Positions 11,403 through 56,965 of a stretch of 64,000 nucleotides of DNA are shown here, piece after piece. Made by a program: the position numbers and the translations under genes. This stretch comes from Blastocatellia bacterium (lineage in GTDB: Bacteria > Acidobacteriota > Blastocatellia > UBA7656), in NCBI GenBank assembly GCA_963765495.1, contig CAVXWP010000008.1:384001-448000 (forward strand), in the 5' to 3' direction. The stretch's first letter is position 1. Each line of letters opens with the position of its first letter. The notes beneath the pieces were generated by a model, which saw only the letters and a program-made list of their open reading frames with translations, made no database searches and had not been told where the DNA came from.

Positions 11403-14400
11403 TTATTGTTCTACATCGGGGGGGATCTGATTGAGAATTGCAGCGGCCTCTTCCTTTGTGGATGCGCGCCAGAGTCTTATCGTGTTGTCGAGCCCGCCCG
11501 TCGCCAGAGTATCGCCCGACTTTGAAAACGCTACCGAACGCCCTCCCCACGCGTCCCGGATCGTCATAATATCCTGCCAGGTAGTAGTATCCCAGAGCTT
11601 TACCGATCTGTCATAGCTGCCCGAAGCAAGCCGCTTCCCATCCGGTGAATAGACCAGCGAACCAATGCCGTTTGCGTGTCCTTCGAGTCTGGCTATTTCC
11701 TGCCTCCCTGCCACGCGCCAGATCCGTATGGTCCTGTCCTTGCTCCCCGCCGCAAGCGTGCTCCCGTCAGGGGAAAACGCGACCGAGAGAAAATCCTCGC
11801 CATTTCCACTAAAGGTGCCGATATCTTTCCCACTGGCCGCGTCCCAGAGCTTGACAGTTTCGTCAGCGCTTGCAGTCGCGATTATCCTGCCGTCAGGGGA
11901 AAATGCCAGGCAGTAAATTCTGTCCCCGTGCGCCGAAATTGAAGCTATGCTTCCGCCGGTCGCAACATCCCAGAGCCTCAAAAACCCGTCGCTTCCTCCG
12001 GCTGCAAGCAACCTTCCGTCGGGAGAAAACCTGACACAGAGAATTTCAGCGTTCTCAGTATTTAAGATTTTCAGGCATTGACCATCGGCTACCTGCCAGA
12101 CCCTCGCTGTCTTGTCATCGCTCCCCGAAGCTATAAGCTTTCCGTCGGGAGAAAAGACTACGGATAACACCTTGCCCTGATGTCCATTTAGCGTATTCAG
12201 TACGCCACCGGATCGCTTTTCCCATATTTTTATAGATTGGTCGTCGCTTGCCGAGGCCAATTCATTGCCGTCCGGCGAGAAGGCGACTGACTCCACCCAG
12301 TCGGTATGGCCGCGTAAGATTCCAAGCCCTCGCCCCGCCGATACATCCCACAACTTGGCTGTATTGTCGTCGCTTCCAGAGGCAAGCAGGTTTCCGTCCG
12401 GCGAGAAGGCTACCGATTCCACCCAGTCATTGTGGTCGCCAAGCAGCACCAACTCTTCGTGCAGAGAAACATCCCAGATTCTTATGGTTTTGTCCTGCCC
12501 CCCGCTGGCAAGCCTTCTGCCGTCGGGTGAAAATACAAGCGATTCTACCGCTCCCTCATGACCTTCAAGAGCCTCAAGCTCGGTCCACGTAGCGACATCC
12601 CACAACCTGATCCTCGAATCGGGACTGCCCGATGCCAGAGTCTTTCCGTCGGGTGAAAAAGCAATCGGAGGAAACGATTTCGCCAGGCTTTCGCTCCTGA
12701 CGCCTTTGAGTGTGGCCAGTTCCCTTCCCGATAAGACATCCCATATTCGAACGTCGTGATCATAACTCCCCGTGGCAACGAGCCTTCCATCGGGCGAAAA
12801 TACGGCTGTCTCGACAGCATCCTGATGCCCTAACAAAGCAAATAATTCGCGTCCTGTAGCCACGTCCCATAGCCTTGCCGTCTTATCCTTGCTCCCGGAA
12901 AGTAGTGTCCGACCGTCGGGCGATAAAACAGTAATTTCAACATCCCCTTCGTGCCCCCGGAAAACTTTCAGACGCTCGTTTGAGGTTACATCCCATAATT
13001 CGATGACCCCACTTGAATTTATAAGCGCAAGCGGCCTCCCGTCGGGGGTAAAGCTGATCGATGTCACGCTGCAACTCTTTCGATTAAACCGGCTCTTCTC
13101 TTTCCGCGAGGCAACGTCCCACAACTTCACCGTTCCGTCTACTGACCCCGTAGCCACCGTCTTCCCATCAGGAGAAAATATAGTCGCGTAAATCCAGCCA
13201 TCGTGATCCATCGTGAAGAGTTCACTGTGAGAAAGATGCCACAGGTAATACCACTCAAATCCACGAAAATCCTCCTGGCCGGGCTTTGGGCTTGTGTGAT
13301 TACCCAATAGATCGAGAAGCCGCTTTGTATTCGCCATCTCCCAGGCCTGCTGTGCCCTGCTTATGTTTGCCAGATATTGCAGTCTTCGATTTGCCTTCTC
13401 TTCATTTATTGCGCGGTTTCTCTCGCGGTAGGCAAAGACCAGGAGGGCGGCCATTATGATTACGATTACGGCTCCAACTGATGCGGCCTGAATAAGGCCG
13501 CGCCTGAATGCCGCCCGTTGTCGCCTCAACTCCGCATCCGGCATGTTTGAGATGATCCACTCTTTGTCAAATACGTTTTCGTAAATCCGGTTCCTGACCT
13601 TTAGATATCCATCCTGGACGCGAACGATCCCCGCCAGCCGCAAATGGTTTACTATCGGGCTGGTCTCATCATCGATTACACGCTTGCCTGACCGCACGTT
13701 CCCGTAGGAGTCGAGCACGGTGGCCACATCCGTCCGTCCGCGCACCATCCTATCCCGCACAAACAGAAGGTTGTCATCCTGTTGTCTGGCCGAGGTGCTC
13801 AAAAACATGCTTTTGCAGAGTCGATCTACGTCTGCCTTTGTTTTGACGCTTTCGTCTTCGGCAATCGCCCGGCAGAGCCGTTGCGTGAGGTATGGATGAC
13901 CACCCGTCCAGTAAAGTGCGCGACTTGCAAGTTCTAATCCTGTGGTGCCGTTTTTTCCAAGACCCTGGCTCAACTGTTTGGCGTCATCTTCGATAAAATC
14001 AGACAACTCTATGCGGCGGCCGATGTTGAAGGGAGTAGTGCGGGTGTCGCGGATCAAATCGCCGGGCGTTGCTACACCAAGAAGACAGAAGGTCACTCGC
14101 AACAACTCCGAGTCTTCGGTGCGCCGATTATAGAGTTCCCGTATCGCGGCAAAAAATTCGTCTGTTGAAAAGGGGAGGCTGCGGACCGCGTCTATCTCGT
14201 CAATAAAGATCACGACCCGCTTATCAATTGTTTCAAGGACAACTTCGCGGATGGCTCGCATCCATCGTTGTAGAGGAGCTACACGCTCGTTATCGAGCCA
14301 GAAATCTTCGAGTTCGTCTTCAAGGTCGAGTTGCTGGCCTACCCTCGCAAGCAGGCCGTCATACCACTGTTCCGGGGCCAGATTCTGACCGATTGCCGTC

Positions 14401-14627
14401 AGGTCCACGACGGCTACGGCAGCCCCTTCCTCCCTCAGCCGGACAGCTGTTCGCACCATCAAGGAAGACTTCCCCATCTGCCTTGATGTAAGCACATAGC
14501 AAAAGTCTCCCCCTGATAGAAATCTGTAAAGGTCGAGGTCCGCCTCTCGCTGTACATAGCTTGGCGCGTCGCGCGCAAGCGTGCCGCCGACTACGTAAAA
14601 GCTCGATTGCTGGCCATAGCCGGTCAT
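11403..14627 (-). CDS. AAA-like (AAA_35/STAND-type) NTPase - TM helix - 14 WD40 repeats
   Basis: SYVQREAD, Walker A variant TSRQMGKS, Walker B IFIDEID, TPFNIG, WTGGHPYLTQ; hydrophobic segment ASVGAVIVIIMAALLVFAY; 14 GH...FSPDG...WD repeats counted. Confidence 0.9.
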   Translation of the reverse strand: MTGYGQQSSFYVVGGTLARDAPSYVQREADLDLYRFLSGGDFCYVLTSRQMGKSSLMVRTAVRLREEGAAVAVVDLTAIGQNLAPEQWYDGLLARVGQQLDLEDELEDFWLDNERVAPLQRWMRAIREVVLETIDKRVVIFIDEIDAVRSLPFSTDEFFAAIRELYNRRTEDSELLRVTFCLLGVATPGDLIRDTRTTPFNIGRRIELSDFIEDDAKQLSQGLGKNGTTGLELASRALYWTGGHPYLTQRLCRAIAEDESVKTKADVDRLCKSMFLSTSARQQDDNLLFVRDRMVRGRTDVATVLDSYGNVRSGKRVIDDETSPIVNHLRLAGIVRVQDGYLKVRNRIYENVFDKEWIISNMPDAELRRQRAAFRRGLIQAASVGAVIVIIMAALLVFAYRERNRAINEEKANRRLQYLANISRAQQAWEMANTKRLLDLLGNHTSPKPGQEDFRGFEWYYLWHLSHSELFTMDHDGWIYATIFSPDGKTVATGSVDGTVKLWDVASRKEKSRFNRKSCSVTSISFTPDGRPLALINSSGVIELWDVTSNERLKVFRGHEGDVEITVLSPDGRTLLSGSKDKTARLWDVATGRELFALLGHQDAVETAVFSPDGRLVATGSYDHDVRIWDVLSGRELATLKGVRSESLAKSFPPIAFSPDGKTLASGSPDSRIRLWDVATWTELEALEGHEGAVESLVFSPDGRRLASGGQDKTIRIWDVSLHEELVLLGDHNDWVESVAFSPDGNLLASGSDDNTAKLWDVSAGRGLGILRGHTDWVESVAFSPDGNELASASDDQSIKIWEKRSGGVLNTLNGHQGKVLSVVFSPDGKLIASGSDDKTARVWQVADGQCLKILNTENAEILCVRFSPDGRLLAAGGSDGFLRLWDVATGGSIASISAHGDRIYCLAFSPDGRIIATASADETVKLWDAASGKDIGTFSGNGEDFLSVAFSPDGSTLAAGSKDRTIRIWRVAGRQEIARLEGHANGIGSLVYSPDGKRLASGSYDRSVKLWDTTTWQDIMTIRDAWGGRSVAFSKSGDTLATGGLDNTIRLWRASTKEEAAAILNQIPPDVEQ

Positions 14628-14643
14628 AGCGAATCCTCTAAAA

Positions 14644-16656
14644 TCAAAGCAGGTGGCGTCCGAGGTAGGTAGCGTAAAGCCTGCAACGTGGCCTCGCGTC
14701 GTTTGATGAGGCCCCCGTCATCAGCCCGGCACTCCTCAATCTGTAAAAACTCTCATCATCAGGCGAGGGCTTCCCGCGAAGCAGTTCCCGCACAACATCG
14801 CAAAGCTCTTCATCCTGAGCAAGAAGCACGAGAAAACGTCGCAGGTGATCGCCAAACGGCCCTTCGTCACGGTCCGCGACAGCCTCAAATTGCGCGAGCC
14901 CAATCCCTTCGTTTACAAGCTCGTAAAGACCTCGCCTCACAAGGTAAGGCTGCCCGCCTACAAGTCCGTGAAAACGCGATACCTCATCCCCACTCCCGAG
15001 AGGTGAACCATACCGATCATTCAGGTCGGCGATCTGCTCCCTAGTAAAATCTTCGATCACAAGCCTTGTCCCCACATTGAAGGGGGATTGATTCAAATCG
15101 GTGATGAAAAGATGAGCCTCCGTCGCATAGGATATGGCAAGCGTAAGACGCTGCCACGGGCCTGTTGGGTCAAGCGATCTCTCGTTATGCCAGGACCGGA
15201 ACAACCCGAATACCTCGCTGCCGTAATCGGTTGTGAAAAGTCGGTCCACCTCATCCAATCCCCAGACTATATGCTCGGGGATTTTATTTAGCACTTCTCT
15301 TCTGATGTATCGCTCGAAATTGATGCTTGGGCCTCGGCGGGTGTTCCACACATCCTCGGGCGAGACATCGAGGTCAAGCTGATCTTCGACCATCTCTGCA
15401 AGCGTCAGAAAGAATGATTCAACAGACTCCATGTGCTCGGCGTTAAACCGCTGGAAATCGGTCAGGACTATCTTCGCTCCTTCCTTTCGCGCCTGCTGAA
15501 GACCTCGTGCCAGCAGAGAGGTTTTCCCCATCTGTCGTGCCCCTTTTACCAGCACTATAGAATCGTGACGGGCGATGGCTGAACAGAAGTCATCGTCGGT
15601 CTCTCTGACGATATAGAACTCCGAATCGAGCGGGACCGCGCCCCCGATAGATTCGAGCCGCTGCCGCTTGCGCTCGGCGACGGGTGGATGACGAAGGCTG
15701 TTTATCAGTTCGGAAACCATCCGTTCAGTATCTTCCGGGCCTTCCCACAGCGCGTATTGCAGGGGCGCGAGTATGCTCCCTATAGGATCTGAAATCGGCC
15801 CTTCATACCCAACCCTTATTGGCAGCAACCTCGGCTTGCCATGCCTTTTTTGTGCTTCGTCGTGAGCTATCTGGATTTCATAGGCCACCATTTCACTCAC
15901 CATAGAAGCAGGAGAAAGCAAGGGAATAACAGCCTCGGAATTGCGAACCTGCTGCTCGATCTCCTTCGCCCATTCGACCCCGATTGACATGTGACGGTCG
16001 ATGAACACATTGAACCCCTCTTCTGATAACCTCACTTCAAGCTGTTGGAGCAAATCCTCATCGGGCTTCGCATTTCGCTTATACAATAGTGCAATCTTCA
16101 TAGCGTCAGTCTCGACAGCTGCTGCGCTACCCTGAGATGCAGATGCCACCACAGACTCGGAAGGCACTGCGGCAACAGGGGCTCGTGCGATTGGTGCTGG
16201 TGGGGGCTCGGCCTCCCTCTCCATCGCCGCTTTTACGCGTTCGACGATCTTCACCAGCGCCACATTCATCTGTGAGGGGCTCAAACTGTCGAGAGGTTCA
16301 GTGGGGTTGTTTGCGGCCTGATAATTTCCTATTTCGGTCTCGTTATAAAGCGACGCGCTGACTGCAATCCACAATATCGTCAAGCCTTCATTTTCAGCGG
16401 CCTGCAAAAGAGGCAACAACTCTTCATTTGCAATAAAATCGGAAGCAAGGAAATTCGGGCTTACAAGCAGGATGGCCACCTTTGCCGATGCGAGCGCGTT
16501 TGTTATCGTATCTTTCCACTTCGCCCCGGAAAGGATTCGGGTGTCATCCCAGACCGATATACTGCTTTTGCGTTCGAGCGGTTTGAGATGGATTTGAAGT
16601 CGATCCAACCATTCCCTGTCACTATGACTGTAGCTGATGAAGACCTGATTTCGCAT
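14644..16656 (-). CDS. TIR - Pro/Ala linker - TIR - AAA-like (AAA_35) NTPase
   Basis: TIR1 VFISYSHSD...[17 protein letters not shown]; TIR2 FNVFID...[15 protein letters not shown]; Walker A GARQMGKT, Walker B LDEVD, SPFNVG, GGQPYL. Confidence 0.9.
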
Positions 16657-29830: not shown

Positions 29831-29838
29831 TGCGGAAA

Positions 29839-29944
29839 GACTGATTCGTGATGCGTGACTTGTGAAGACACGTCAGATTACAAGGCTATCGTTCATTTAT
29901 ATTGTATTTGGTTCGGATCACGCATCACGAATCACGCATCAGTC
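29839..29944. repeat. Heptamer-based intergenic inverted repeat
   Basis: TGATTCGTGATGCGTGA (29842-29858) pairs perfectly with TCACGCATCACGAATCA (29918-29934); lies between convergent genes. Confidence 0.75.
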
Positions 29945-29945
29945 A

Positions 29946-32117
29946 TTACAGATTCAAGGAACGGGCTTTTTCCTCTATTGCCTCGTATAACTGCGATTTC
30001 TCACTTTCGCTCACGGCCTGGCGGTATGAGGTGAGCAGGTCTTTTATCGAAATAAGCTCTTTATATAATCCGGCATTTTCAATAGGCGGGGTCAGATATG
30101 AAATCAGTTCGCCGTATGACCGCCGTTTGGCGATTGTTCCCTCCGAGGGATTGTTTACGCTGTAAATGTATATGTTCGGCATCTCGCCGATCAGCCGATC
30201 AGGCCAGCACCGCGATGATAGACCAACTTGCTTGCCGGGCATAAATTCCGTAGCTCCGTGTGTCCCTACGTGGATCAGCGCATCCGCGCGAAATATCTTT
30301 TCAATGTATGTGTAAAGCCCCATAAAGGCGTGGTGGGGCGCTCCGCTTTCGGCGGCAAGCAATCGCATCGGATCGCCTTCATACCCAAACGTAGGCTGGA
30401 CCCCTATAAAGATGTTTCCCAATCTCAGGCCAGGGATCAATATCTCTCGCCCGTTGGAGTTTATCATCCCCGGCGGACGCCCCCATTCATCTTCAATCTC
30501 CGAGACATAAGGGCAAAAGGATCGGTATTCGTCTACGCTCATTCGATATGCAATGTTGGCGACCGATCCAAAATCCGATGAGTTACCATCAAGCAACAAA
30601 CCGCGCAAATGGTCGGGGCTATCGGGAATTTCAAGATCGTAACCTTCAACCTTTAACCGCTTAAGTATCTCAAAGAGGCTCCTGAATACATCCAGGTCGG
30701 CTGCGGTTCCTATGTTTCCTTTGTTTGGCGGGAAGCAAAACAGGATGTATGCGAGCCTCAAATCTTTTCTTTCCGCAATCCGCAGATGATTCCATCGCGC
30801 CAGTCTCCGAGCGATCCTTGCGCACCTGTCTTCAATGGGCTCGGGTTGAATGCCGCTTTCTGTAATACCGCCAAAGACAAACCCTTCGGTCGCTCCGTCT
30901 ATTTCTGGAATCGCAACCTGCATCGCCGTTTGCACGGGGTTGAGTCCCAATCTGCTTGCCTCCCAGCTTTCAACCGTTTGAACATCGAGCGACACCATCG
31001 ACCGATAAGGCAAATTGAATTCCTTAAAGAATTCAACCGCAGCCGATGAATCGTTCATAGCCGGCCCCCCGACAAAACTGAAGCCCGTGAGCGAGAGTAT
31101 TTCACTTACACGCGGGCTCGGTTTTTCACTCCCCCCACGATCAAGGAAGAATTCGCGGCACGCTTCCCGGTTGTCCATAAAGGTAGAGATTGCAGGGATT
31201 ATGGAAAGCCCCTCTGCCTCGATTGCCCGCATCAAGCCGTCGTAATGCAGCCGCGACCCGCTGACAATTTGCGGCCTCATCAGCAATAAACCGAGAGTCT
31301 TCTCCGGGTCCAGTCGTCTACCTTTTACCTGCTGATACCATCCCCTGTACTCTTCGAAGGTTTCAAACAGCCCATCGGCATCCGGGTGATAAATTGCTAC
31401 TGTTGGAGCACGTTCGAACGCTCCCGGTTCGATTACTTCCTTCCCGTCAGGTGAATAATGCTTGACGGCATAAAGCAGCATTGACCGTATGTTTCCGGGT
31501 GTCGGTTGCAGGAAATAACAGAACAGATTCAGATAGTGCTTGATGTCTTTGAGTTTGCCCGCGCCGGGGACAAATTTAAGTATCGCGGGCAATCTGTTTA
31601 CGAGCTTTAGATATGCCCCGGCGTTGCGGGGTGCGGCGTGCCCGTTTTGTTTGCCGCCGTTTGAGGAGGCTGATTTTGTGTTCGCCCCCTTTACCTGTTC
31701 TGCCATCCACGAGCCAATTCTCTTCACGAGATTCCGGCTCGATTCAACATCCCCTGTCTTACTCCCGCTCGCCCGAGATTTCATCAGGCTCGCGAAATCA
31801 AGCCTCCCCATTCGCGTCCGCCGCATCAGTTCGGGCATACAATTGAAGGCGATGACGGTCCTGGATGCATTACTCATCTGGTCAAGGATTTCACCTATCC
31901 GCAGAGCGTTTTCGCCTTCTGTAACATGTATGATGAAGATGATTTCAGACCCGATTAAATCTCTTTCCGCCCCCTGCCATTCATCTTCCGTGAGCGGCAG
32001 CCCACAATTATGAGCCGCTACTGTGAGGCCAAGCTCGTACTGACGGTTGATGTCCTGCTCGGCCTGTCTTAGTGGGACAAGCAGACTGGACCCGACATAA
32101 AGGACGGTTATTTTCAA
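29946..32117 (-). CDS. Mg-chelatase H (BchH/ChlH)-like subunit, N-terminal half
   Basis: FNCMPELMRRTRMG, LTGFSFVGGPA, MQVAIPEIDGA, FCFPPNKGNIGTAA, GVQPTFGYEGDPMRLL, HVGTHGATEFMPGKQ, NNPSEGTIAKRR, ISYLTPP; TTG start overlaps the upstream TGA. Confidence 0.88.
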   Translation of the reverse strand: MKITVLYVGSSLLVPLRQAEQDINRQYELGLTVAAHNCGLPLTEDEWQGAERDLIGSEIIFIIHVTEGENALRIGEILDQMSNASRTVIAFNCMPELMRRTRMGRLDFASLMKSRASGSKTGDVESSRNLVKRIGSWMAEQVKGANTKSASSNGGKQNGHAAPRNAGAYLKLVNRLPAILKFVPGAGKLKDIKHYLNLFCYFLQPTPGNIRSMLLYAVKHYSPDGKEVIEPGAFERAPTVAIYHPDADGLFETFEEYRGWYQQVKGRRLDPEKTLGLLLMRPQIVSGSRLHYDGLMRAIEAEGLSIIPAISTFMDNREACREFFLDRGGSEKPSPRVSEILSLTGFSFVGGPAMNDSSAAVEFFKEFNLPYRSMVSLDVQTVESWEASRLGLNPVQTAMQVAIPEIDGATEGFVFGGITESGIQPEPIEDRCARIARRLARWNHLRIAERKDLRLAYILFCFPPNKGNIGTAADLDVFRSLFEILKRLKVEGYDLEIPDSPDHLRGLLLDGNSSDFGSVANIAYRMSVDEYRSFCPYVSEIEDEWGRPPGMINSNGREILIPGLRLGNIFIGVQPTFGYEGDPMRLLAAESGAPHHAFMGLYTYIEKIFRADALIHVGTHGATEFMPGKQVGLSSRCWPDRLIGEMPNIYIYSVNNPSEGTIAKRRSYGELISYLTPPIENAGLYKELISIKDLLTSYRQAVSESEKSQLYEAIEEKARSLNL

Positions 32118-33865
32118 CCGAGCGCCCCCTCTAATTGATCTTCCAAATTTGCAAAGGCATCGCGGAGTCTGTCGAGCACATTTTGATCGGCAGCCCAGAG
32201 ACCGCGACCCGATGCCTCAAGCAAACGACCTACGAGCGTTCGCGTCGAATGCGGGTTCAGCGTCCGCAATCGTTCGAGCATCGCTTCATCCATCACGTAG
32301 GTTTCGGCCACCCTGTCGTATATCCACCCTTCCACTGCATCTGTTGTCGCCGACCATCCAAATGTGTTTGCCAACTGATGTTCGATTTCAGCCACCCCGC
32401 TAAATCCGTGCTTTAACATCCCTTCATACCACTTCGGGTTTAGAGCCTTGGTCCGCGTCTCAAGCTTGACCGTCTCTTCAAGCGACCTTATTTTCACCCC
32501 CGGCGAAAGCGTGTCTGAAAGGTAGATTCGGGGACGTGCGCCCGCGTGCCGTTCGACCGCTTTTGAGACTCCACCCAGATATTCAAAATAGTGGTCCACA
32601 TCTGTGATCCCCACTTCGGTCGTGTCGATGTTTTGATAGGTAACCTCTACCCTTGAGAGCGCCTTCTCAAGCAGTTGGCGGGCCTGGTTTCCTTCAAAGG
32701 TACGGCCTCTGGAATCGCGCCCATACGCAAAGCATTTGCGAGTTACAAACAGATCGCCCAGTTCCGCGCTGTCTTCCCACTGGCTGTCAAGCACCATGAA
32801 GTTTACGTTGGTGCCATAGTTGCCCGCAGCGTTTGAAAATACCCGAACAACCGCTTCGTCAAATGTGCAATCATTCTCGGCGCGATACTGCTCAACGTGC
32901 AGCTTTACAAAATTCTGATCCGACGGCTCGTCAAGAACGGCCACCCGTCTTACAGCGCGATCAAGCAAAGCCATGGTGGTCCCGAAGAGATCACGGAATA
33001 TTCCCGATACGGTCATCACTATGTCGATGCGGGGCCGTCCCAGTCGCTCAAGAGGGATTATCTCTACATCGGTTGCACGGTTCAGGTTGTCTCGTCGAGG
33101 CTCGACGCCAAGAAGCCAGAGCGCCTGCGCCACCGCTTCGCCCTCGGTCTTGATATTGTCTATTCCCCAGAGCACCATCGCTATAGTTTCAGGAAGCCGC
33201 CCCATCTCGTTTTGCAGGCGTTCCAGAAACGCCCGAGCGATTGGCTCTGCCCTGTGAATCGCGCCTGTCGATGGAACCAGGTAGGGGTTGACAGCATGCG
33301 TGTTGCGGCCCGTAGGCAATATCGAAGGGTTCTGAATTATATCGGCTCCTGGTCCCGGCTCGATGTATTCAGATCTAAGCGCGCGCATAAGCTGGTCTAC
33401 TTCTGAATTCCGTTCGAGATTGGCGCGGATGTCACACAGAACTCTGAAGACTTTCGAGGATTCTTCGGTCAAAACTCCTGCTCTATCCTCAAGATACTCG
33501 ACCGCCTTCTTAGAAGCTCCGTCTCCGGGCTGGGATAGAAAAATCTCAATCGAGTCTTCGAGTAAGGAATCTACTCGTTCTCGCTCCGCCATCCGTGTTT
33601 CCGAGGTGCTGCTCTCTTTTAACAGAGTTGCGTATGGTGGCAGGCTCAGTCCTTCGGCAATCAGGTCTGCCAGGGAACGGAGGCCGAGTTCGGGGCGGTC
33701 AAATGAACTGACCACCTTGAATAAACCGGCGACCTCACGATTGTCGGGAGGAAGGCCAAAGACGTGTAGCCCGGTTGGTATCAACCTCTGCTCGATCTCG
33801 AGCACACGCTCGTAAAGGTCGAGCACGCGGCTGTCTCTTTCATCGCTGCTCAGGTTATCCGCCAT
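32114..33865 (-). CDS. Mg-chelatase H (BchH/ChlH)-like subunit, C-terminal half
   Basis: EIEQRLIPTGLHVFG, PGPGADIIQNPSILPTGRN, ETIAMVLWGIDNIKTEGE, LGRPRID, SGIFRDLF, RVFSNAAGNYG, TDVDHYFEYLG, LNPKWYEGML. Confidence 0.88.
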   Translation of the reverse strand: MADNLSSDERDSRVLDLYERVLEIEQRLIPTGLHVFGLPPDNREVAGLFKVVSSFDRPELGLRSLADLIAEGLSLPPYATLLKESSTSETRMAERERVDSLLEDSIEIFLSQPGDGASKKAVEYLEDRAGVLTEESSKVFRVLCDIRANLERNSEVDQLMRALRSEYIEPGPGADIIQNPSILPTGRNTHAVNPYLVPSTGAIHRAEPIARAFLERLQNEMGRLPETIAMVLWGIDNIKTEGEAVAQALWLLGVEPRRDNLNRATDVEIIPLERLGRPRIDIVMTVSGIFRDLFGTTMALLDRAVRRVAVLDEPSDQNFVKLHVEQYRAENDCTFDEAVVRVFSNAAGNYGTNVNFMVLDSQWEDSAELGDLFVTRKCFAYGRDSRGRTFEGNQARQLLEKALSRVEVTYQNIDTTEVGITDVDHYFEYLGGVSKAVERHAGARPRIYLSDTLSPGVKIRSLEETVKLETRTKALNPKWYEGMLKHGFSGVAEIEHQLANTFGWSATTDAVEGWIYDRVAETYVMDEAMLERLRTLNPHSTRTLVGRLLEASGRGLWAADQNVLDRLRDAFANLEDQLEGALG

Positions 33866-33873
33866 TTCTAATT

Positions 33874-35820
33874 TCAGCCCCCTGATTCTCCTCTCACTTG
33901 TTTCACTCGGAGGGCTTTGGCCTCACTTGAGACAGCCTCATATATCGAGGCCGCGTCGGGTCGAGTGAGATAGATGTAGCGTGCTCCGATCAAATTGGCA
34001 AGCGCGCGAGCTTCGCCAACTGATGTGTATTTCGAGCGCGTGTCTACTACTACGCGATCAATCCCTTCCCTGGCCAAAAGAGCGCCGGTCTGTTTCAGTT
34101 CTTCGTTGATTGTTTCTTTCCGCTCGGCCATCGCCTCTACCGCGCTTTCTCGAAATAGAGTATTAGCCCGGCCATCGGTAAACAATACCAGCATAGCCTG
34201 TGCCTTATCCTGTGCTCGCGCAACCCTCGCTATATCAATTGCTCGCGCGAGCGCCGCCGCAATCGGTGTAGCGCCCCCGGATGGTATAGCATCGACCAGC
34301 CGTTTGGCCAGTTCCACGCTCCGGGTGGGAGGAAGCAGGACATCTGCCCTCTTGCCCCTGAAGCTTATCAGAGCGACGCGGTCGCGATGCAGATAGGCCG
34401 ACTGCAATAATCTCGTCAACGCCCCTTTAGCCTGCGCCATTCGGTTTGCAGCCATGCTGCCGCTTGCGTCTACCGCGAAGATAAAGAGCAAACCCGATTT
34501 TCGTTTGAACTGTTTGTATCGCAAATCATCGGTTGTCACCTTCAGGCGGGGGTTGTCTGTATTTTGGCCCGAAGCCGAGCGCCCGGCCCGCGCGGCCCGC
34601 TCCAATTGAAACGGAGCCGAGGCTCTTATAGTAGCGTCAACGGCTATACAACTAGCGCGATCAGATTTTTCAGTGCTCCTAACGTAGCGGCCTCTGTTCG
34701 AACTCCGTGACAGAGAGCGTTTCCCGGCAGCGGCTCGGTTATTACGCTTTTGATCGAACGGCAGAAAGTCATCCGGCAAGCGGGAATCCAGAGCCTGAAT
34801 TATCAATTCTCCGGCGGGTGATGGGCAGTTATTGGTCGAGGTGTCATCAGTGGCTTGTCCATCATCAACCGTTTTTTCCGGATCATCAGCAGGCGTGTCT
34901 GAACCTTGCTCTTCGGGTGCAGGAATAAGAGTGGCGCGAGGCAATAGCGTCGTCTCGATTGCAAATATGAGATCTTTTTCGGTTAGATGTAGTCGCCTTT
35001 CGTAAGCGGCGTTTGCTCTGGCCGCACATAGAGCAAAGAGGTCGGCTTGATTCCCTTCTACCCCGAGCATCACAGCGGCCTCACTGAGTTGCCTGATCTC
35101 ATCAATGGTAATTTCAACTCTCGGCAGCCATTCTCTTGCCTCTTCTATAGTCCAATTCATTTCCGCTGTATCAAGCTCGTAATCTTCAATAAATGAGCCG
35201 GGATCGTCCCGAAACTGAGTAGCTCGATTCATTATTTCCAAACGCGCTTCAATTGATCCGGCAGACTCGGCATCAATCAAAAGCCCGACGCGCTCTCGCA
35301 GCAATCGCGCCGGCTCACCCTCATCGCGGTCATAGGTTCCAATAAATAAGAAATTGGCCGGAAATGTCTTGCTCAACCCTTCACGCTCGGTGCGGAGACG
35401 GCCCGATTCGAGCGCCGATGCAAGATGACACACAATGATCGCATCAATCAGATTTACGTGATTGGCGAAGAGGAGTCCGCCGTCTGCCTGTGTCAGGAGA
35501 CCGGACAGAAATTTACGCTCTCCCGCGACAAGAGTCCGGCTAAAGTCTATCCCCCCGATCAAACGGTCTTCTGTGGAATTAATCGGAAGCTCTAGGAAGG
35601 GGGCAACGAATCTACGGAGCCCTCGGATCAACGTGCTCTTGCCCGTCCCGGGGCCGGATTGAATAAGCGCCCCCTTTAAACGGGGCTCGATCAGTGGCAA
35701 CAGGATTGCCCGCTTTAACAGGTCGAGACCTACAATTGCCGCGAAAGGGTAATCCGACGGCACACGATGTCTTTCCATTCTCGAACCTGAATCACCAGAT
35801 GGGTCAGAGTTTACCAACAA
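33874..35820 (-). CDS. Chelatase medium subunit ChlD/BchD (degenerate AAA+ - acidic linker - vWA)
   Basis: YPFAAIVG, GPGTGKS, TEDRLIGG, degenerate Walker B (FANHVN), acidic/Pro linker, IAVDATIRA, MIDAS VDASGSM, GGATP, LFTDGRAN. Confidence 0.88.
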   Translation of the reverse strand: MLVNSDPSGDSGSRMERHRVPSDYPFAAIVGLDLLKRAILLPLIEPRLKGALIQSGPGTGKSTLIRGLRRFVAPFLELPINSTEDRLIGGIDFSRTLVAGERKFLSGLLTQADGGLLFANHVNLIDAIIVCHLASALESGRLRTEREGLSKTFPANFLFIGTYDRDEGEPARLLRERVGLLIDAESAGSIEARLEIMNRATQFRDDPGSFIEDYELDTAEMNWTIEEAREWLPRVEITIDEIRQLSEAAVMLGVEGNQADLFALCAARANAAYERRLHLTEKDLIFAIETTLLPRATLIPAPEEQGSDTPADDPEKTVDDGQATDDTSTNNCPSPAGELIIQALDSRLPDDFLPFDQKRNNRAAAGKRSLSRSSNRGRYVRSTEKSDRASCIAVDATIRASAPFQLERAARAGRSASGQNTDNPRLKVTTDDLRYKQFKRKSGLLFIFAVDASGSMAANRMAQAKGALTRLLQSAYLHRDRVALISFRGKRADVLLPPTRSVELAKRLVDAIPSGGATPIAAALARAIDIARVARAQDKAQAMLVLFTDGRANTLFRESAVEAMAERKETINEELKQTGALLAREGIDRVVVDTRSKYTSVGEARALANLIGARYIYLTRPDAASIYEAVSSEAKALRVKQVRGESGG

Positions 35821-35868: not shown

Positions 35869-36993
35869 TCACCGAAAAGAGACGACGCGAGCACCTGAAA
35901 CCGAAGCCGGGAAAATCTCATCCAAAACCTGTTGAATCCTGACGCCTGAATCAATCCGCTCAAGTGGGTCTTTTCGCAACCTGTGCTGCAATGACATTAC
36001 AGCCACTCTCTTTACATCCGAAGCAACCGCATCCTCTCTGCCCTCGAAGGCAGCAAGCGCCCGCGCGGTTCGCGCTATAGTCAATTCTCCGCGATGCCCG
36101 TCAATCTCGAGTGCCAGACACAGCCGGGCGATTGATTTAAGCAATGCCTGCTCAAGCCTGACTTTGTAATGCGTTTTTTTGGCGCGGACCAGTCGCCTTC
36201 GCAGACGGTTTTGCTCTGCCCTTTGCTCTGCTATAAACGCTTCCGGGTTGCGCTCGAAAGACTCTCTTCGTCTCACGATTTCAACGCGCTCGTCAAGATC
36301 AGTGATCGTTTTGATCTCTGTAAACAATCCGAAGCGGTCAAGCAACTGAGGTCTCAATTCCCCCTCTTCGGGATTACCTGAGCCTACAAGCACAAACCTC
36401 GCAGGATGGGTGATCGATATGCCCTCGCGCTCGACAACATTCCGGCCACTCGCCGCCGAATCGAGCAGGATGTCTACGAGGTGGTCGTCAAGCAGGTTTA
36501 CTTCATCAATGTAAAGAAAGCCCCGGTTAGCGCGGGCCAGCAACCCCGGCTCGAAAGCCTTCACCCCTTCAACCAGGGCGCGTTCTATGTCGAGCGATCC
36601 GCAAACGCGATCCTCGGTAGCTCCAAGCGGCAGATCGACTACCGGCACCTCGCCTCGTTCAACAGGGAGCCTGGATTTCTTTTTTAATCTGTCGGCACAA
36701 GCCAGGCAGAGTTCGCCGATTCGTTCGGGATCGCACCCAAATACGCACCCTCTCACTTTGCTGATCCCGGGGAGGAGGTCTGCAAGACCGCGCACCGCCG
36801 TAGACTTGCCCGTCCCGCGATGACCCATAATGATCACACCACCGATGTGAGGATCGATTATGGTCAATAGAAGCGCAAGCTTCATCTCTTCCTGGCCCAC
36901 AAGAGCGGTGAAAGGGTATACCGGGCGGTCGCCCGTACTGCTACGCTTCGATGTGCTGGAAACCGGAGGTTGACTCCCCGAAACTTTTCGCAT
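35869..36993 (-). CDS. bchI: Chelatase small ATPase subunit ChlI/BchI
   Basis: YPFTALVGQEEMKLAL, GHRGTGKST, LPLGATEDRVCG, FEPGLLARANRG, YIDEVNLL, GNPEEGELRPQLLDRFG. Confidence 0.92.
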   Translation of the reverse strand: MRKVSGSQPPVSSTSKRSSTGDRPVYPFTALVGQEEMKLALLLTIIDPHIGGVIIMGHRGTGKSTAVRGLADLLPGISKVRGCVFGCDPERIGELCLACADRLKKKSRLPVERGEVPVVDLPLGATEDRVCGSLDIERALVEGVKAFEPGLLARANRGFLYIDEVNLLDDHLVDILLDSAASGRNVVEREGISITHPARFVLVGSGNPEEGELRPQLLDRFGLFTEIKTITDLDERVEIVRRRESFERNPEAFIAEQRAEQNRLRRRLVRAKKTHYKVRLEQALLKSIARLCLALEIDGHRGELTIARTARALAAFEGREDAVASDVKRVAVMSLQHRLRKDPLERIDSGVRIQQVLDEIFPASVSGARVVSFR

Positions 36994-37042: not shown

Positions 37043-37072
37043 AATATAAGGATTGTGGTTTCACAGAGTCAA
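37043..37072 (-). promoter_or_regulatory. Putative sigma70 promoter of the chelatase operon
   Basis: TTGACT-18 bp-TATATT on the minus strand, 49 bp upstream of the chlI/bchI ATG. Confidence 0.5.
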
Positions 37073-37269: not shown

Positions 37270-37824
37270 TCAATTCGCTACGGTTAAAGGGTCTCCGGTC
37301 TGGTGGTCCTGAATCTGGAATTTCAGGAAATCGTGGATTGCGCTTAAGGCCTCCGAATTCGATGTCGAGATCCGCACGCGCCCGCCTCTTTCTGTCTCTT
37401 CGAATGTATATGCGATTTCTGATGCGAGCCGCTTCATCGTAGGAACACCGGGCGGAACCTGTGAATGGATAAGCATGGGCATTTCGAAATCGCCTTTGGC
37501 AAAGGCTCGCGCGATTATAGCCAGATGCTCTCTGATCTGATCGCGGGTCGTTGTGTCATTTGAATCGTTGGTTTCGACCTGTATATAGCCTCCGTCTCCG
37601 GTCATGCGGAAGTGATGCGTTGCGGCTTCCTGAGAAAACCCCATCACGTGATCTCCTCTCTTATTCACCTCCGACAGATGATTATGATCACCCCCTGTAG
37701 CCTCTTTCTCCTTCTCCATGTGCTGCTTATGCATCGGACAGGTAGCGGCTTTCTCCTGAGCGACACCCACAGTCCCACAGGCAACCAGCAGAACGATAAC
37801 CTGTATTGCCAATCGGTTTCTCAT
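37270..37824 (-). CDS. Exported His/Met-rich hypothetical protein (putative metal-binding)
   Basis: Signal-peptide-like N-terminus, CPMHKQHM, DHNH, MGFSQEAATHHF, IREHL, LIHS, AIHDFL.FQI.DH. Confidence 0.75.
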   Translation of the reverse strand: MRNRLAIQVIVLLVACGTVGVAQEKAATCPMHKQHMEKEKEATGGDHNHLSEVNKRGDHVMGFSQEAATHHFRMTGDGGYIQVETNDSNDTTTRDQIREHLAIIARAFAKGDFEMPMLIHSQVPPGVPTMKRLASEIAYTFEETERGGRVRISTSNSEALSAIHDFLKFQIQDHQTGDPLTVAN

Positions 37825-38321
37825 TTCCTTTTACCTCTTTTCTGATTTAATCCATGCGATGCAAGCGAAGGACGCGCGCTTTTTGTACCCGGTTCGTTTG
37901 ATGCAAGGGCTTCCAACAGCCCGGCTCTTGTATCAGGCGGCGTATCCGAAAGTCTCTGCTGCCAGTCCGCAAGAAGACCGTGCAACTCATTCCTGAAATC
38001 GGAAAGCTCTTTTAGCCTCTCTTCAATCTCTTGAAGTTTGGTCTGAGCCAGTGAAAAGACATTCCGGCAGGGTGCGTCTCCACGGTCCCGAACTTTGAGG
38101 ATTTGCGAAAGCTCCTCTAGCGTAAAGCCGATTGCAATCGCTCGCCTGACGAGCCGGACGCGTTCGAGAGTTTCGGGCGGATACTCCCTGTACCCGTTCC
38201 TTGATCGGTGGGGCGCGGGAAGAACTCCTTTACGTTCATAGTGGCGCAAGGTATCCGTGCTCACGCCAGCCAGCCGTGCCAGTTCACCTGATCTCAGTTT
38301 TCCGTTAAGCGATCTGTCCAT
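37821..38321 (-). CDS. MerR-family transcriptional regulator
   Basis: SGELARLAGVSTDTLRHYERKG, NGYREY, GFTLEE, APC; start moved to ATG 38321, downstream of the promoter. Confidence 0.92.
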   Translation of the reverse strand: MDRSLNGKLRSGELARLAGVSTDTLRHYERKGVLPAPHRSRNGYREYPPETLERVRLVRRAIAIGFTLEELSQILKVRDRGDAPCRNVFSLAQTKLQEIEERLKELSDFRNELHGLLADWQQRLSDTPPDTRAGLLEALASNEPGTKSARPSLASHGLNQKRGKRK

Positions 38322-38333
38322 ACTTGCAGACGG

Positions 38334-38365
38334 ATTATAAACCCCGGAACGAATTCCAGGGTCAA
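38334..38365 (-). promoter_or_regulatory. MerR-type long-spacer promoter with operator dyad
   Basis: TTGACC-20 bp-TATAAT with dyad ACCCTGGAA-TTCG-TTCCGGGGT; A8 tract just upstream of the -35. Confidence 0.85.
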
Positions 38366-38444
38366 GCACTTTTTTTTGAGCAAAGCTCCGAGACTCTTAC
38401 GAACGGGTGGTATGAGTGGTCAGCCTGCTCGCGTTCCCACTCGA

Positions 38445-55355: not shown

Positions 55356-55504
55356 CTCTGATAGTAGGCAGTAGGCAGTAGGCAGTTAAGCTGGAGGCGG
55401 GTACCAACTATTCACATCTATATATTGCATTGCTGAGTTTAGCCCTTTGGCTTTGATCTTGATTATCAGCTTAACTGCCTACTGCCTACTGCCTACTATC
55501 AGAG
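55356..55504. repeat. Perfect 38-bp inverted repeat containing tandem AGTAGGC heptamers
   Basis: CTCTGATAGTAGGCAGTAGGCAGTAGGCAGTTAAGCTG (55356-55393) and its exact reverse complement (55467-55504), 73-nt spacer. Confidence 0.92.
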
Positions 55505-56464
55505 TTGTCGGGCAATCTCGCGGGCATAATAGGTCAGAATCAAATCGGCTCCCGCACGTTTTATTGAGGTCAGCGACTCGAGGGCTACTCGTTGTTCGTC
55601 AATCCAACCCATTTTCGCAGCCGCCTTTATCATCGCGTATTCGCCCGAGACCTGATAAGCCGCTACCGGAAGATCGAATCGTTCGCGAACGGCGCGAATG
55701 ACATCCAGATAAGGGAGTGCGGGTTTAACCATGAGGATATCGGCACCCTGCTCCCAATCGAGTTCGGCTTCGCGCATGGCTTCGCGCGAATTGGCAGGGT
55801 CCATCTGATACCCTCGACGGTCGCCAAACTGAGGGGCCGATTGCGCCGCCTCTCGGAACGGGCCATAGAAGGCCGACGCGTATTTGACGGCATACGACAT
55901 TATCGGTATCTGATCAAATCCAGATTCATCAAGTGCCTGACGGATCGCCTCAACAAAACCATCCATCATATTGGAGGGGGCTATAATATCTGCCCCCGCC
56001 TCTGCCTGAGATACAGCCGTTTGCGCAAGCAAATCGAGCGTAGGGTCATTTAGAACTTCGCCGTCTTCGATAACGCCGCAATGGCCGTGATCCGTATACT
56101 CGCACAGACAATTATCCGCGATGAGAAGTACATCTCCTGTCTCGCGCTTTAGGGCTCGTATTGCCCTCTGCGTGATGCCGTCTTCGGCATAACCCTGAGA
56201 GCCGGTAGGGTCTTTTTCATCAGGTACACCAAATAAGATTACCGCGCGCACGCCCTCTGTACGCGCGGCCTCGACCTCTCGAACCAGCTCATCAATCGAC
56301 ATGTTATAACAACCCGGCATTGCCGAAATCTCGCGGCGCACGCCCTCGCCTTCGCAAACAAAGAGCGGGTAGATGAAATCGTCCGGCGACAGCCGTGTCT
56401 CACGCACCATCGCACGTATCGTCTCAGTGCGCCGCAACCTTCGGGGCCTCTGAATCAAATTCAT
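55499..56464 (-). CDS. hemB: Porphobilinogen synthase (ALA dehydratase), Zn type
   Basis: [42 protein letters not shown]. Confidence 0.97.
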
Positions 56465-56740: not shown

Positions 56741-56965
56741 TTAGAGCGCGTCTGAAAAGTGAAGAAAAGCCCCGAAGGGGCGAGATTCAATAGCCCGGCG
56801 CGTTGCGCCGGGTAGAGGCAGCCAAAGTCGCGCAAGCCCTGAAAGGGCGCAATATCGGGGCCTATCTCCCACTTTCAGGGCTCGGGGGATTTTGGCCTCG
56901 GTTCCTGGGGCGATGCCCCAGGCTATTGGATTGCGTCCTTTCAGGGCTTTTCAGACGCGCTCTAA
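56741..56965. mobile_element. MITE-like element with terminal inverted repeats and internal REP-like hairpins
   Basis: TTAGAGCGCGTCTGAAAAG ... CTTTTCAGACGCGCTCTAA (19-bp perfect IR); internal AGCCCCGAAGGGGC, AGCCCTGAAAGGGC, CTTTCAGGGCT x2, CCCGGCGCGTTGCGCCGGG. Confidence 0.72.

Follow-up and report, generated by a model that had tools for sequence, protein, structure and literature searches.

In the Mg-chelatases of phototrophs, the H subunit (BchH or ChlH) is a single polypeptide that works with the I and D subunits, whose motor step is family knowledge (PMC13297055; this and the other sources named in this paragraph are cited from the part of each that was available to us). In Synechocystis ChlH, residues H621, E625, Y651, Y653, E660 and H1174 are essential or line the proton path (PMC13297055). 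The same superfamily holds CobN, the large subunit of CobNST, and HmuS, a heme dechelatase of Bacteroidota (PDB 9D26) with the six-domain fold and a conserved His pair across the cavity (PMC12583661). According to that source, domains III and IV and domains V and VI form the two halves of an H-type body, the cavity lies between domains III, V and VI, and the His of HFG(T/A)HG in domain III faces the His of the domain V motif across the active site. 'Vestigial' BchH paralogues have been described in non-phototrophic Terrabacteria (Actinobacteria, Limnochordia and Dehalococcoidia; PMC11194577), and permutation by duplication is a route described in PMC3320104. Here, we analysed a stretch of 64,000 nucleotides (hereafter the window; contig CAVXWP010000008.1 of assembly GCA_963765495.1, positions 384,001 to 448,000) from a Blastocatellia bacterium of the Acidobacteriota, in which the H subunit is encoded by two genes and the gene for its C-terminal half (Hc) lies upstream of the gene for its N-terminal half (Hn).

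The chelatase genes are on the minus strand and read bchI, bchD, Hc, Hn from head to tail, with Hc and Hn summing to 1306 aa (Table 1). A preliminary description of this DNA had given that order, the 583 and 723 aa lengths, the coordinates and the end sequences, all of which were reproduced: by translation of the open reading frames (ORFs), the Hc protein starts with MADNLSSDERD and the Hn protein ends with KARSLNL. Both motor genes are encoded alongside and exceed their curated cut-offs. The bchI product scores 523.7 bits against TIGR02030 BchI-ChlI (cut-off 466.95) and matches Pfam Mg_chelatase and AAA_lid_2; the bchD product scores 539.8 bits against TIGR02031 BchD-ChlD (cut-off 499.55), carries the MIDAS (metal-ion-dependent adhesion site) motif DASGS at residue 451, and matches VWA_2 at 447-550. 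The tight packing described earlier, with 8 bases after bchD and a TTG start overlapping a TGA stop, was read directly from the sequence, and GAGGGGG is located 8-14 nt upstream of the Hn TTG.

On alignment, the H subunit is cut cleanly within a short linker, since the halves abut on both ChlH and Chloracidobacterium BchH with no loss or duplication. Hn aligns with residues 146-744 and Hc with residues 755-1350 of Synechocystis ChlH (chain numbering of PDB 4ZHJ), which places the breakpoint at 744/755. On Chloracidobacterium BchH, Hn residue 723 falls on 693 and Hc residue 5 on 694. The family models are divided in the same way: Hn covers 3-538 and Hc 551-1089 of Pfam CobN-Mg_chel (PF02514, length 1090), Hn matching DUF3479 as well, and Hn covers 2-688 and Hc 696-1271 of NCBIfam BchH TIGR02025 (length 1271), in agreement with the earlier view that the two products lose little of the ancestral chain. 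The domain III motif is in the part on one side of the cut, the domain V motif in the part on the other. Summed, the halves reach 1362.8 bits against TIGR02025 (Hc 664.9, Hn 697.9), above the cut-off of 829. The locus differs from BchH/ChlH, in which one polypeptide of about 1200-1400 aa carries domains I-VI in order, by having two ORFs in reversed order, and resembles it in that the halves together are collinear end to end with ChlH and lie beside BchI and BchD genes.

The six ChlH catalytic residues are all present, divided between the two products. The Hn equivalents (H620, E624, Y650, Y652 and E659) do not vary among 23 Hn sequences, and the stretch D424-G432 of Hc, to which H425 belongs, does not vary among 26 Hc sequences. 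The HVGTHG and NNPSE motifs are on Hn and DVDHYFEYLGG is on Hc. Since the facing His motifs are on separate chains, the active site would be predicted to form only between Hn and Hc. NNPSE is common to 26 of 28 BchH/ChlH rows (the other two have NNPAE) and differs in the CobN and intermediate rows.

The split is widespread among relatives. In 41 related genomes, including 24 of the window's family and one of a second family, Hc has an open frame of its own, 583-666 aa long, in 21 of the 24 and in the one. A contig scan with one genome per species kept 80 loci, 61 of them acidobacterial-type (L015-L072, L077, L079, L080) and 19 outgroup. Hc is its own ORF in 61/61 acidobacterial-type loci, and Hn lies directly downstream on the same strand in 55, so that relatives share the order and are not confined to an intact H; one further locus stops at a contig edge and five have no Hn over at least 1.2 kb of downstream sequence. 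In contrast, the N-part precedes the C-part in all 19 outgroup loci (Chloroflexota, Cyanobacteriota and Pseudomonadota; 41-49% identity), 17 of which hold single frames of 918-1390 aa. Among 401 genomes sampled from the phylum, the window's family (f1, 2/2) and families f4 (7/27) and f7 (1/1) had the split form, and the matches in the other families were CobN-like (29-39% identity); G090, a genome of this sample that is flagged unpublished, underlies none of the statements made here. Because the same order recurs in independent assemblies, chance and misassembly are ruled out, in line with the earlier argument that no frameshift or sequencing error made it. Full-text literature searches, which covered main texts outside subscription journals, gave no description of a split or order-swapped BchH, ChlH or CobN.

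Read support, which had been proposed as a check, was obtained in part. Contigs from a public DNA run covered 27 of 30 bins at ≥99% identity without joints, and a 695-nt piece bridges bchD and Hc, but none of the eight pieces listed lies over the Hc/Hn junction; the run may be the source sample and is therefore not independent, and it adds little to the conservation seen across genomes.

Trees of the C-part and the N-part (quick IQ-TREE, LG+G4) were each built from 61 rows, of which 26 were split and 35 were full-length. These rows were the window, 25 split loci (of the 61) selected for having both ORFs complete, 16 full-length outgroup ORFs and 19 full-length database proteins. Three loci (L084, L093, L094) were excluded as partial, and the 36 other split loci were unused. 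In both half-trees, the split rows form a single clade with a support of 100 in the Shimodaira-Hasegawa-like approximate likelihood ratio test (SH-aLRT). This clade is nested within phototroph BchH/ChlH, apart from the intermediate proteins and the CobN row, and the branch parting BchH/ChlH and split rows from the intermediate and CobN rows has an SH-aLRT of 99. By their tree placement, the split arose once, from a BchH-type H subunit. The closest full-length proteins are BchH of Chloroflexota (48-51% identity) and of Chloracidobacterium (46-47%), and Hc is 45-51% identical to the BchH of these two groups. Vertical descent from Chloracidobacterium BchH was also considered; with the split clade and Chloracidobacterium taken as a single clade, the p value of the approximately unbiased (AU) test was 0.166 on the C-half and 0.026 on the N-half, and this ambiguous result was not used.

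Four loci carry titles at odds with their gene placement, namely L019 and L020 ('uncultured Clostridia bacterium') and L041 and L054 ('Bryobacteraceae bacterium'). L020 groups with the window's Blastocatellia relatives, L041 and L054 are the basal branch of the split clade, and L019 is outside the tree, with an Hc 70% identical to the window's. Either the labels of these metagenome-assembled genomes (MAGs) are wrong or the split operon exists beyond Blastocatellia.

Strong purifying selection acts on both halves. Across the 22 locus pairs that lie closest, the ratio of nonsynonymous to synonymous substitution rates (dN/dS) was 0.033-0.142 for Hc, 0.037-0.170 for Hn and 0.039-0.203 for the D gene, with dS unsaturated (<1) for both halves in 6 of the 22 pairs; relaxed selection, which would have spoken for decay, was not seen. 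The halves also occur together. Among the 41 related genomes, Hc was found in 23, Hn in 24 and both in 23, the lone extra Hn genome holding just an Hn fragment at a contig start, and the same three window-family genomes lack both.

A model of Hn 330-723 with Hc scored 0.91, and the best of three controls scored 0.01; 116 of 157 solved complexes attain the score mark, as do 2 of 215 mismatched pairs, which is an approximate calibration with our own alignments. Runs agreed in ≥95% of contacts and the partner predicted local distance difference test (pLDDT) values were ≥89. Residues 613-631 and 647-662 of Hn and 415-423 of Hc belong to the modelled interface, which takes in the catalytic stretches.

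Judged from these sequences, the bchI-bchD-Hc-Hn genes are likely to encode a class I ATP-driven tetrapyrrole chelatase with an obligate two-chain H subunit, probably one that makes Mg-protoporphyrin IX. We infer that Hn and Hc would associate non-covalently and rebuild the closed body, with a cavity lined by HVGTHG and NNPSE of Hn and DVDHYFEYLGG of Hc; the MIDAS-bearing VWA domain of D would dock on this body, and ATP hydrolysis by I would drive metal insertion. The earlier reading of an evolved two-chain H cut at a domain boundary is borne out by the single origin, the selection, the co-occurrence and the divided motifs, together with the modelled interface. If so, the catalytic cavity of the least understood Mg-chelatase subunit can be built from two chains, which makes the locus a natural experiment and would offer smaller, separable constructs for porphyrin entry and for coupling to the D subunit.

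Several observations weigh against this interpretation. Alone, Hc and Hn are each under the BchH equivalog cut-offs, both that of TIGR02025 and that of NF009140 (688.1 and 728.1 bits, cut-off 1300). In 11 of 55 loci, unrelated small genes separate Hc from Hn, and four genomes (G013, G041, G042, G043) carry the two halves on separate contigs, so that their co-regulation is not guaranteed. As the ChlH structure has been solved, the passing model may mirror likeness to the ChlH fold and is not independent evidence of binding; the interface may show likeness to ChlH, not binding. With respect to chemistry, the checked residues other than NNPSE are conserved across the CobN/BchH/HmuS superfamily and thus do not fix the metal, and no use is known for a Mg-porphyrin in cells that lack BchM.

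Between the Hc stop and the Hn start, the spacing in the 55 loci varies from an overlap of 1-5 nt (14 loci) through 0-30 nt (13) and 31-160 nt (17) to 527-1520 nt (11). The translational coupling suggested earlier therefore fits the window and the 14 loci with overlapping codons, but is not required, given the 11 loci with inserts of 0.5-1.5 kb and the four genomes split over contigs. The variable spacing, the inserts and the separate contigs indicate that Hc and Hn are true, separable genes. In genomes with Hn on another contig, the gene after Hc encodes a GAF-PAS-GGDEF-EAL protein, and in locus L096 yifB comes next after Hn. The genes inserted between Hc and Hn, seen in 11 MAGs, encode a PD-(D/E)XK nuclease, a DUF2059 protein and a caspase-DUF2059 protein.

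The best-surviving alternative keeps the two-chain architecture and changes the chemistry: the substrate pair may be Zn, Co, Ni or another tetrapyrrole, or the enzyme may remove iron from heme as HmuS does, which we regard as a substantial minority possibility. It draws first on the host. In the window's own genome (97.9% complete), neither BchM (best 68.4 against a cut-off of 158.9 bits) nor BchL (41.9 against 345 bits) was found over its cut-off, and no match to a PsaA/PsaB-type reaction centre was obtained, in contrast to what would be expected beside a BchH/ChlH. Among 81 genomes of the class, BchM exceeded its cut-off only in the phototrophic family f6 (8/12), where BchH is full-length (1302-1306 aa, in 3.7-Mb two-contig genomes); in the split-bearing families it was found in 0/15 other genomes of the window's family, 0/17 of f4 and 0/3 of f7. 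The alternative also draws on the catalytic His, Glu and Tyr being common to the whole superfamily, on HmuS being the same fold running the reverse reaction (PMC12583661, as far as the available part goes), and on the heme-rich setting of the Pyrinomonadaceae-type cluster, which lies between cytochrome c maturation genes and Rieske, cytochrome b and multiheme genes.

On the other side, the halves score about twice as high against BchH models as against CobN models and against ChlH as against HmuS chains, and they nest in phototroph BchH/ChlH in both trees and keep the NNPSE motif of BchH/ChlH type. CobN shares the superfamily and PF02514 with the halves, and the pieces are entered as 'cobaltochelatase subunit CobN' in several database records. 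However, the halves reach only 341.7 and 244.1 bits with CobN models (TIGR02257 cut-off 822.05) against 664.9 and 697.9 with BchH, the CobN row is outside the split clade, and a pathway to hydrogenobyrinic acid a,c-diamide was not detected: the cobalamin pathway was not found in the own genome (two TP_methylase genes, CobB unmatched), and the window scan returned no cobalamin riboswitch or other Rfam element near the chelatase operon. Compared with HmuS, the halves score 232.9 and 143.4 bits, versus 476.7 and 507.8 for ChlH, and their continuous alignment with ChlH leaves no room for the 120-residue Met-rich insertion of HmuS in domain IV, so that neither close similarity to HmuS nor its insertion was found. 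Moreover, HmuS is described as ATP-independent in the available part of PMC12583661, yet the I and D motor genes are kept and selected here, and the heme-gene neighbourhood is not found in the window's own genome.

As the sequences are of BchH/ChlH type, Mg and protoporphyrin IX form the most likely single pair, and insertion of Mg2+ into protoporphyrin IX stands, in our judgement, at about an even chance. Since ferrochelatase is present in the own genome and ChdC was not found there, protoporphyrin IX should be available. With BchM, BchL, PsaA/B and the cobalamin pathway not found, any product would serve a non-photosynthetic role. That soil Blastocatellia and Pyrinomonadaceae, being non-phototrophic, make Mg-protoporphyrin IX as an end product through a two-chain BchH for such a use is a tentative proposal that we hold to be rather unlikely as a whole; under it, the two-chain BchH was either retained from, or exchanged with, a phototrophic lineage of the same class. 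By analogy, candidate roles would be a cofactor of the Rieske/split-cytochrome-b complex or a sensor chromophore; chlorophyll a is a bound cofactor of cytochrome b6f.

A chlorophyll-type chelatase kept under strong purifying selection across a large group of soil bacteria where the next pathway enzyme was not found points to either new metalloporphyrin biology or reuse of photosynthesis genes, and that no chlorophyll pathway was seen in the host, a point missing from the preliminary description, is more puzzling than the split. It also bears on the history of phototrophy in Acidobacteriota, as the hosts belong to the same class as Chloracidobacterium and the split clade is not clearly sister to its BchH. 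Like the BchH vestiges of Terrabacteria, the halves branch within phototroph sequences in hosts without chlorophototrophy. Unlike those, which the available part of PMC11194577 reports exclusively in Terrabacteria, they are in Acidobacteriota, in Chloracidobacterium's class, and are split and order-swapped. By its placement, the split clade is a comparable, vestige-like BchH of Acidobacteriota with a split and an order swap in addition, and its enzyme probably still works. If true, the Mg-porphyrin interpretation would contradict the restriction of such vestiges to Terrabacteria. Surveys that select on length or score will overlook a split H, because its pieces fall under curated cut-offs and carry names that vary between CobN and subunit H.

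The neighbourhood of the chelatase genes differs among loci. In 36-43 of the 61 loci, the genes that come after them encode a Rieske protein, a cytochrome b split into N and C genes and a multiheme cytochrome c of about 1170 aa, for example in the Pyrinomonadaceae-type loci L025, L028, L042, L049 and L068, and in about 20 loci ccmA/B/C/F and a di-haem oxidoreductase gene precede them. In the window's genome, the Rieske/cytochrome b cluster is unlinked, on another contig (C9:264494-270551), and ccmB/C/F gave no match with the queries used. Strict dependence of the chelatase on this cluster was rejected, because among five genomes without Hc the cluster's subunit-IV-like gene is present in two (absent in three). 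The motor also varies: in Pyrinomonadaceae-type loci (L023-L080) it is one gene of 654-754 aa (e.g., L025:7975-9981, L024:7731-9968), whose N-part shares 58-70% identity with the window's BchI and continues into a VWA domain. Of five such genomes (G173, G395, G434, G435, G436), four are without a separate bchI-like gene, whereas the window's group has separate I and D genes; the single-gene motor may be connected with the chlD-only states that PMC9227772 discusses.

It is improbable that the halves no longer form one enzyme and have taken separate roles, such as porphyrin binding, regulation or the anti-sigma activity reported for ChlH, their adjacency being historical. The contig separation in four genomes and the inserts in 11 loci would suit this explanation, as would a stand-alone 466-aa C-terminal H-like protein in a Chlorobi-type phototroph (a 47-member cluster). 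However, 23 of 24 genomes with either half have both, the same three family genomes lack both, the catalytic motifs are invariant on Hn and on Hc, the two genes have similarly low dN/dS, the I and D genes stay beside them, and the modelled interface passes its controls. The 466-aa protein (cluster of P0150 and P0281) matches only Hc residues 141-581 and comes from long contigs that belong to Candidatus Thermochlorobacter aerophilum and its relatives. An assembly artefact or a freshly broken, decaying gene, as might be suspected from the unusual layout and from each half lying under its equivalog cut-off, has a negligible probability given the recurrence of the layout in 61 loci, drawn from many assemblies made independently, and in 21 of the 24 family genomes, two open frames with dN/dS of 0.03-0.17, and the run contigs without joints, with their bridge over bchD and Hc (from what is possibly the source sample).

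With a two-chain BchH-type subunit as the preferred interpretation, the reversed order is most simply explained, as we infer it, by tandem duplication with partial losses. After a duplication to H-H, copy 1 would lose its 5' half and copy 2 its 3' half, and this route would leave a working gene at every step. Consistent with it, the ancestral C-terminus (model position 1271) is the end of Hc, the ancestral N-terminus (model position 2) is the start of Hn, and the new termini are at the linker. The C-part-then-N-part order is the one that permutation by duplication yields through tandem duplication and loss of both outer parts, and transhydrogenases likewise have independent enzyme halves as separate genes. 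In contrast to permutation by duplication, no fused permuted polypeptide was found here: a stop codon stands between the halves in 61/61 loci, so that the gene order is permuted and not the protein chain. Among scored proteins of 1022-2915 aa, none was a fused circularly permuted form (best identity 51%), and the longer proteins listed had Pfam domains in normal order or PF02514 alone. Neither these proteins nor the own genome held duplication intermediates or relics. In the 7.3-Mb, 17-contig genome the only H pieces are Hc and Hn, and a tblastn search to E 10 for relics of the lost halves gave chance matches only (E ≥ 0.46). Fission followed by local transposition is a possible alternative origin.

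In genome G173 (L104:6380-6490), Hc and Hn are in the same frame, parted by one TGA that is followed by GTG. The open frame of 1379 aa was rejected as a fused protein, being two ORFs split by one in-frame TGA; read-through of this TGA would yield a fused, circularly permuted protein of 1379 aa.

Table 1 Coordinates of the chelatase genes, their key residues and the associated signals. Positions are those of the window unless a locus is given.
Feature	Position	Strand	Description
bchI-type AAA+ motor subunit	35869..36993	-	374 aa; Walker A GHRGTGKS at residue 57
bchD-type bridging subunit	33874..35820	-	648 aa; AAA+-like N-part, acidic/Pro-rich linker, VWA domain
Spacer, bchD stop to Hc ATG	33866..33873	-	8 nt; direct sequence reading
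H subunit C-half (Hc)	32114..33865	-	583 aa; domain V motif and rest of C-terminal body
Hc H425 codon	32591-32593	-	Equivalent of ChlH H1174, within invariant DVDHYFEYLGG
TTGA overlap, Hn TTG start on Hc TGA stop	32114..32117	-	Direct sequence reading
H subunit N-half (Hn)	29946..32117	-	723 aa; DUF3479 head region and N-terminal body with domain III motif
Hn H620, E624, Y650, Y652, E659	codons 30141-30260	-	ChlH H621, E625, Y651, Y653, E660
Long stem-loop just past Hn stop	29832..29941	-	RNA fold -39.2 kcal/mol, z -3.68
Promoter-like site TTGACT, 18 nt, TATATT	37043..37072	-	10/12 consensus matches; 50 nt upstream of bchI; weak
Inserted genes between Hc and Hn, examples	L050:2700-3077, L077:11882-12259, L065:8791-9156, L060:11747-12262, L045:11810-13168

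The stem-loop past the Hn stop is likely to be the end of the transcription unit, as 0 of 200 shuffles fold as well. At the other end, the consensus scan of the region upstream of bchI found 4 promoter-like sites versus 6.2 expected from shuffles. A gene pair located 276 nt upstream of bchI (window 37270-38369, minus strand) encodes a MerR-family regulator of 182 aa, overlapping by 4 nt the gene of a 184-aa protein with a lipoprotein-like signal, a His/Met-rich stretch and no Pfam match. Of the 61 loci, only L017 and L018 keep this pair, and the two genes were for this reason rejected as parts of the system.

Elsewhere in the window, two convergent Acido-Lenti-1 RNA matches (56768-56812, minus strand, and 56904-56948, plus strand) lie beside hemB (55499-56464), with scores of 44.3 and 37.9 bits and a gathering score of 37. 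A 670-aa TIR and AAA_35 protein adjoins a 1074-aa WD40-repeat protein (11403-16656, minus strand), and TIR genes also adjoin the chelatase operon in L018 and Hn in G013. The TIR-associated genes near these loci are possibly defence or signalling modules.

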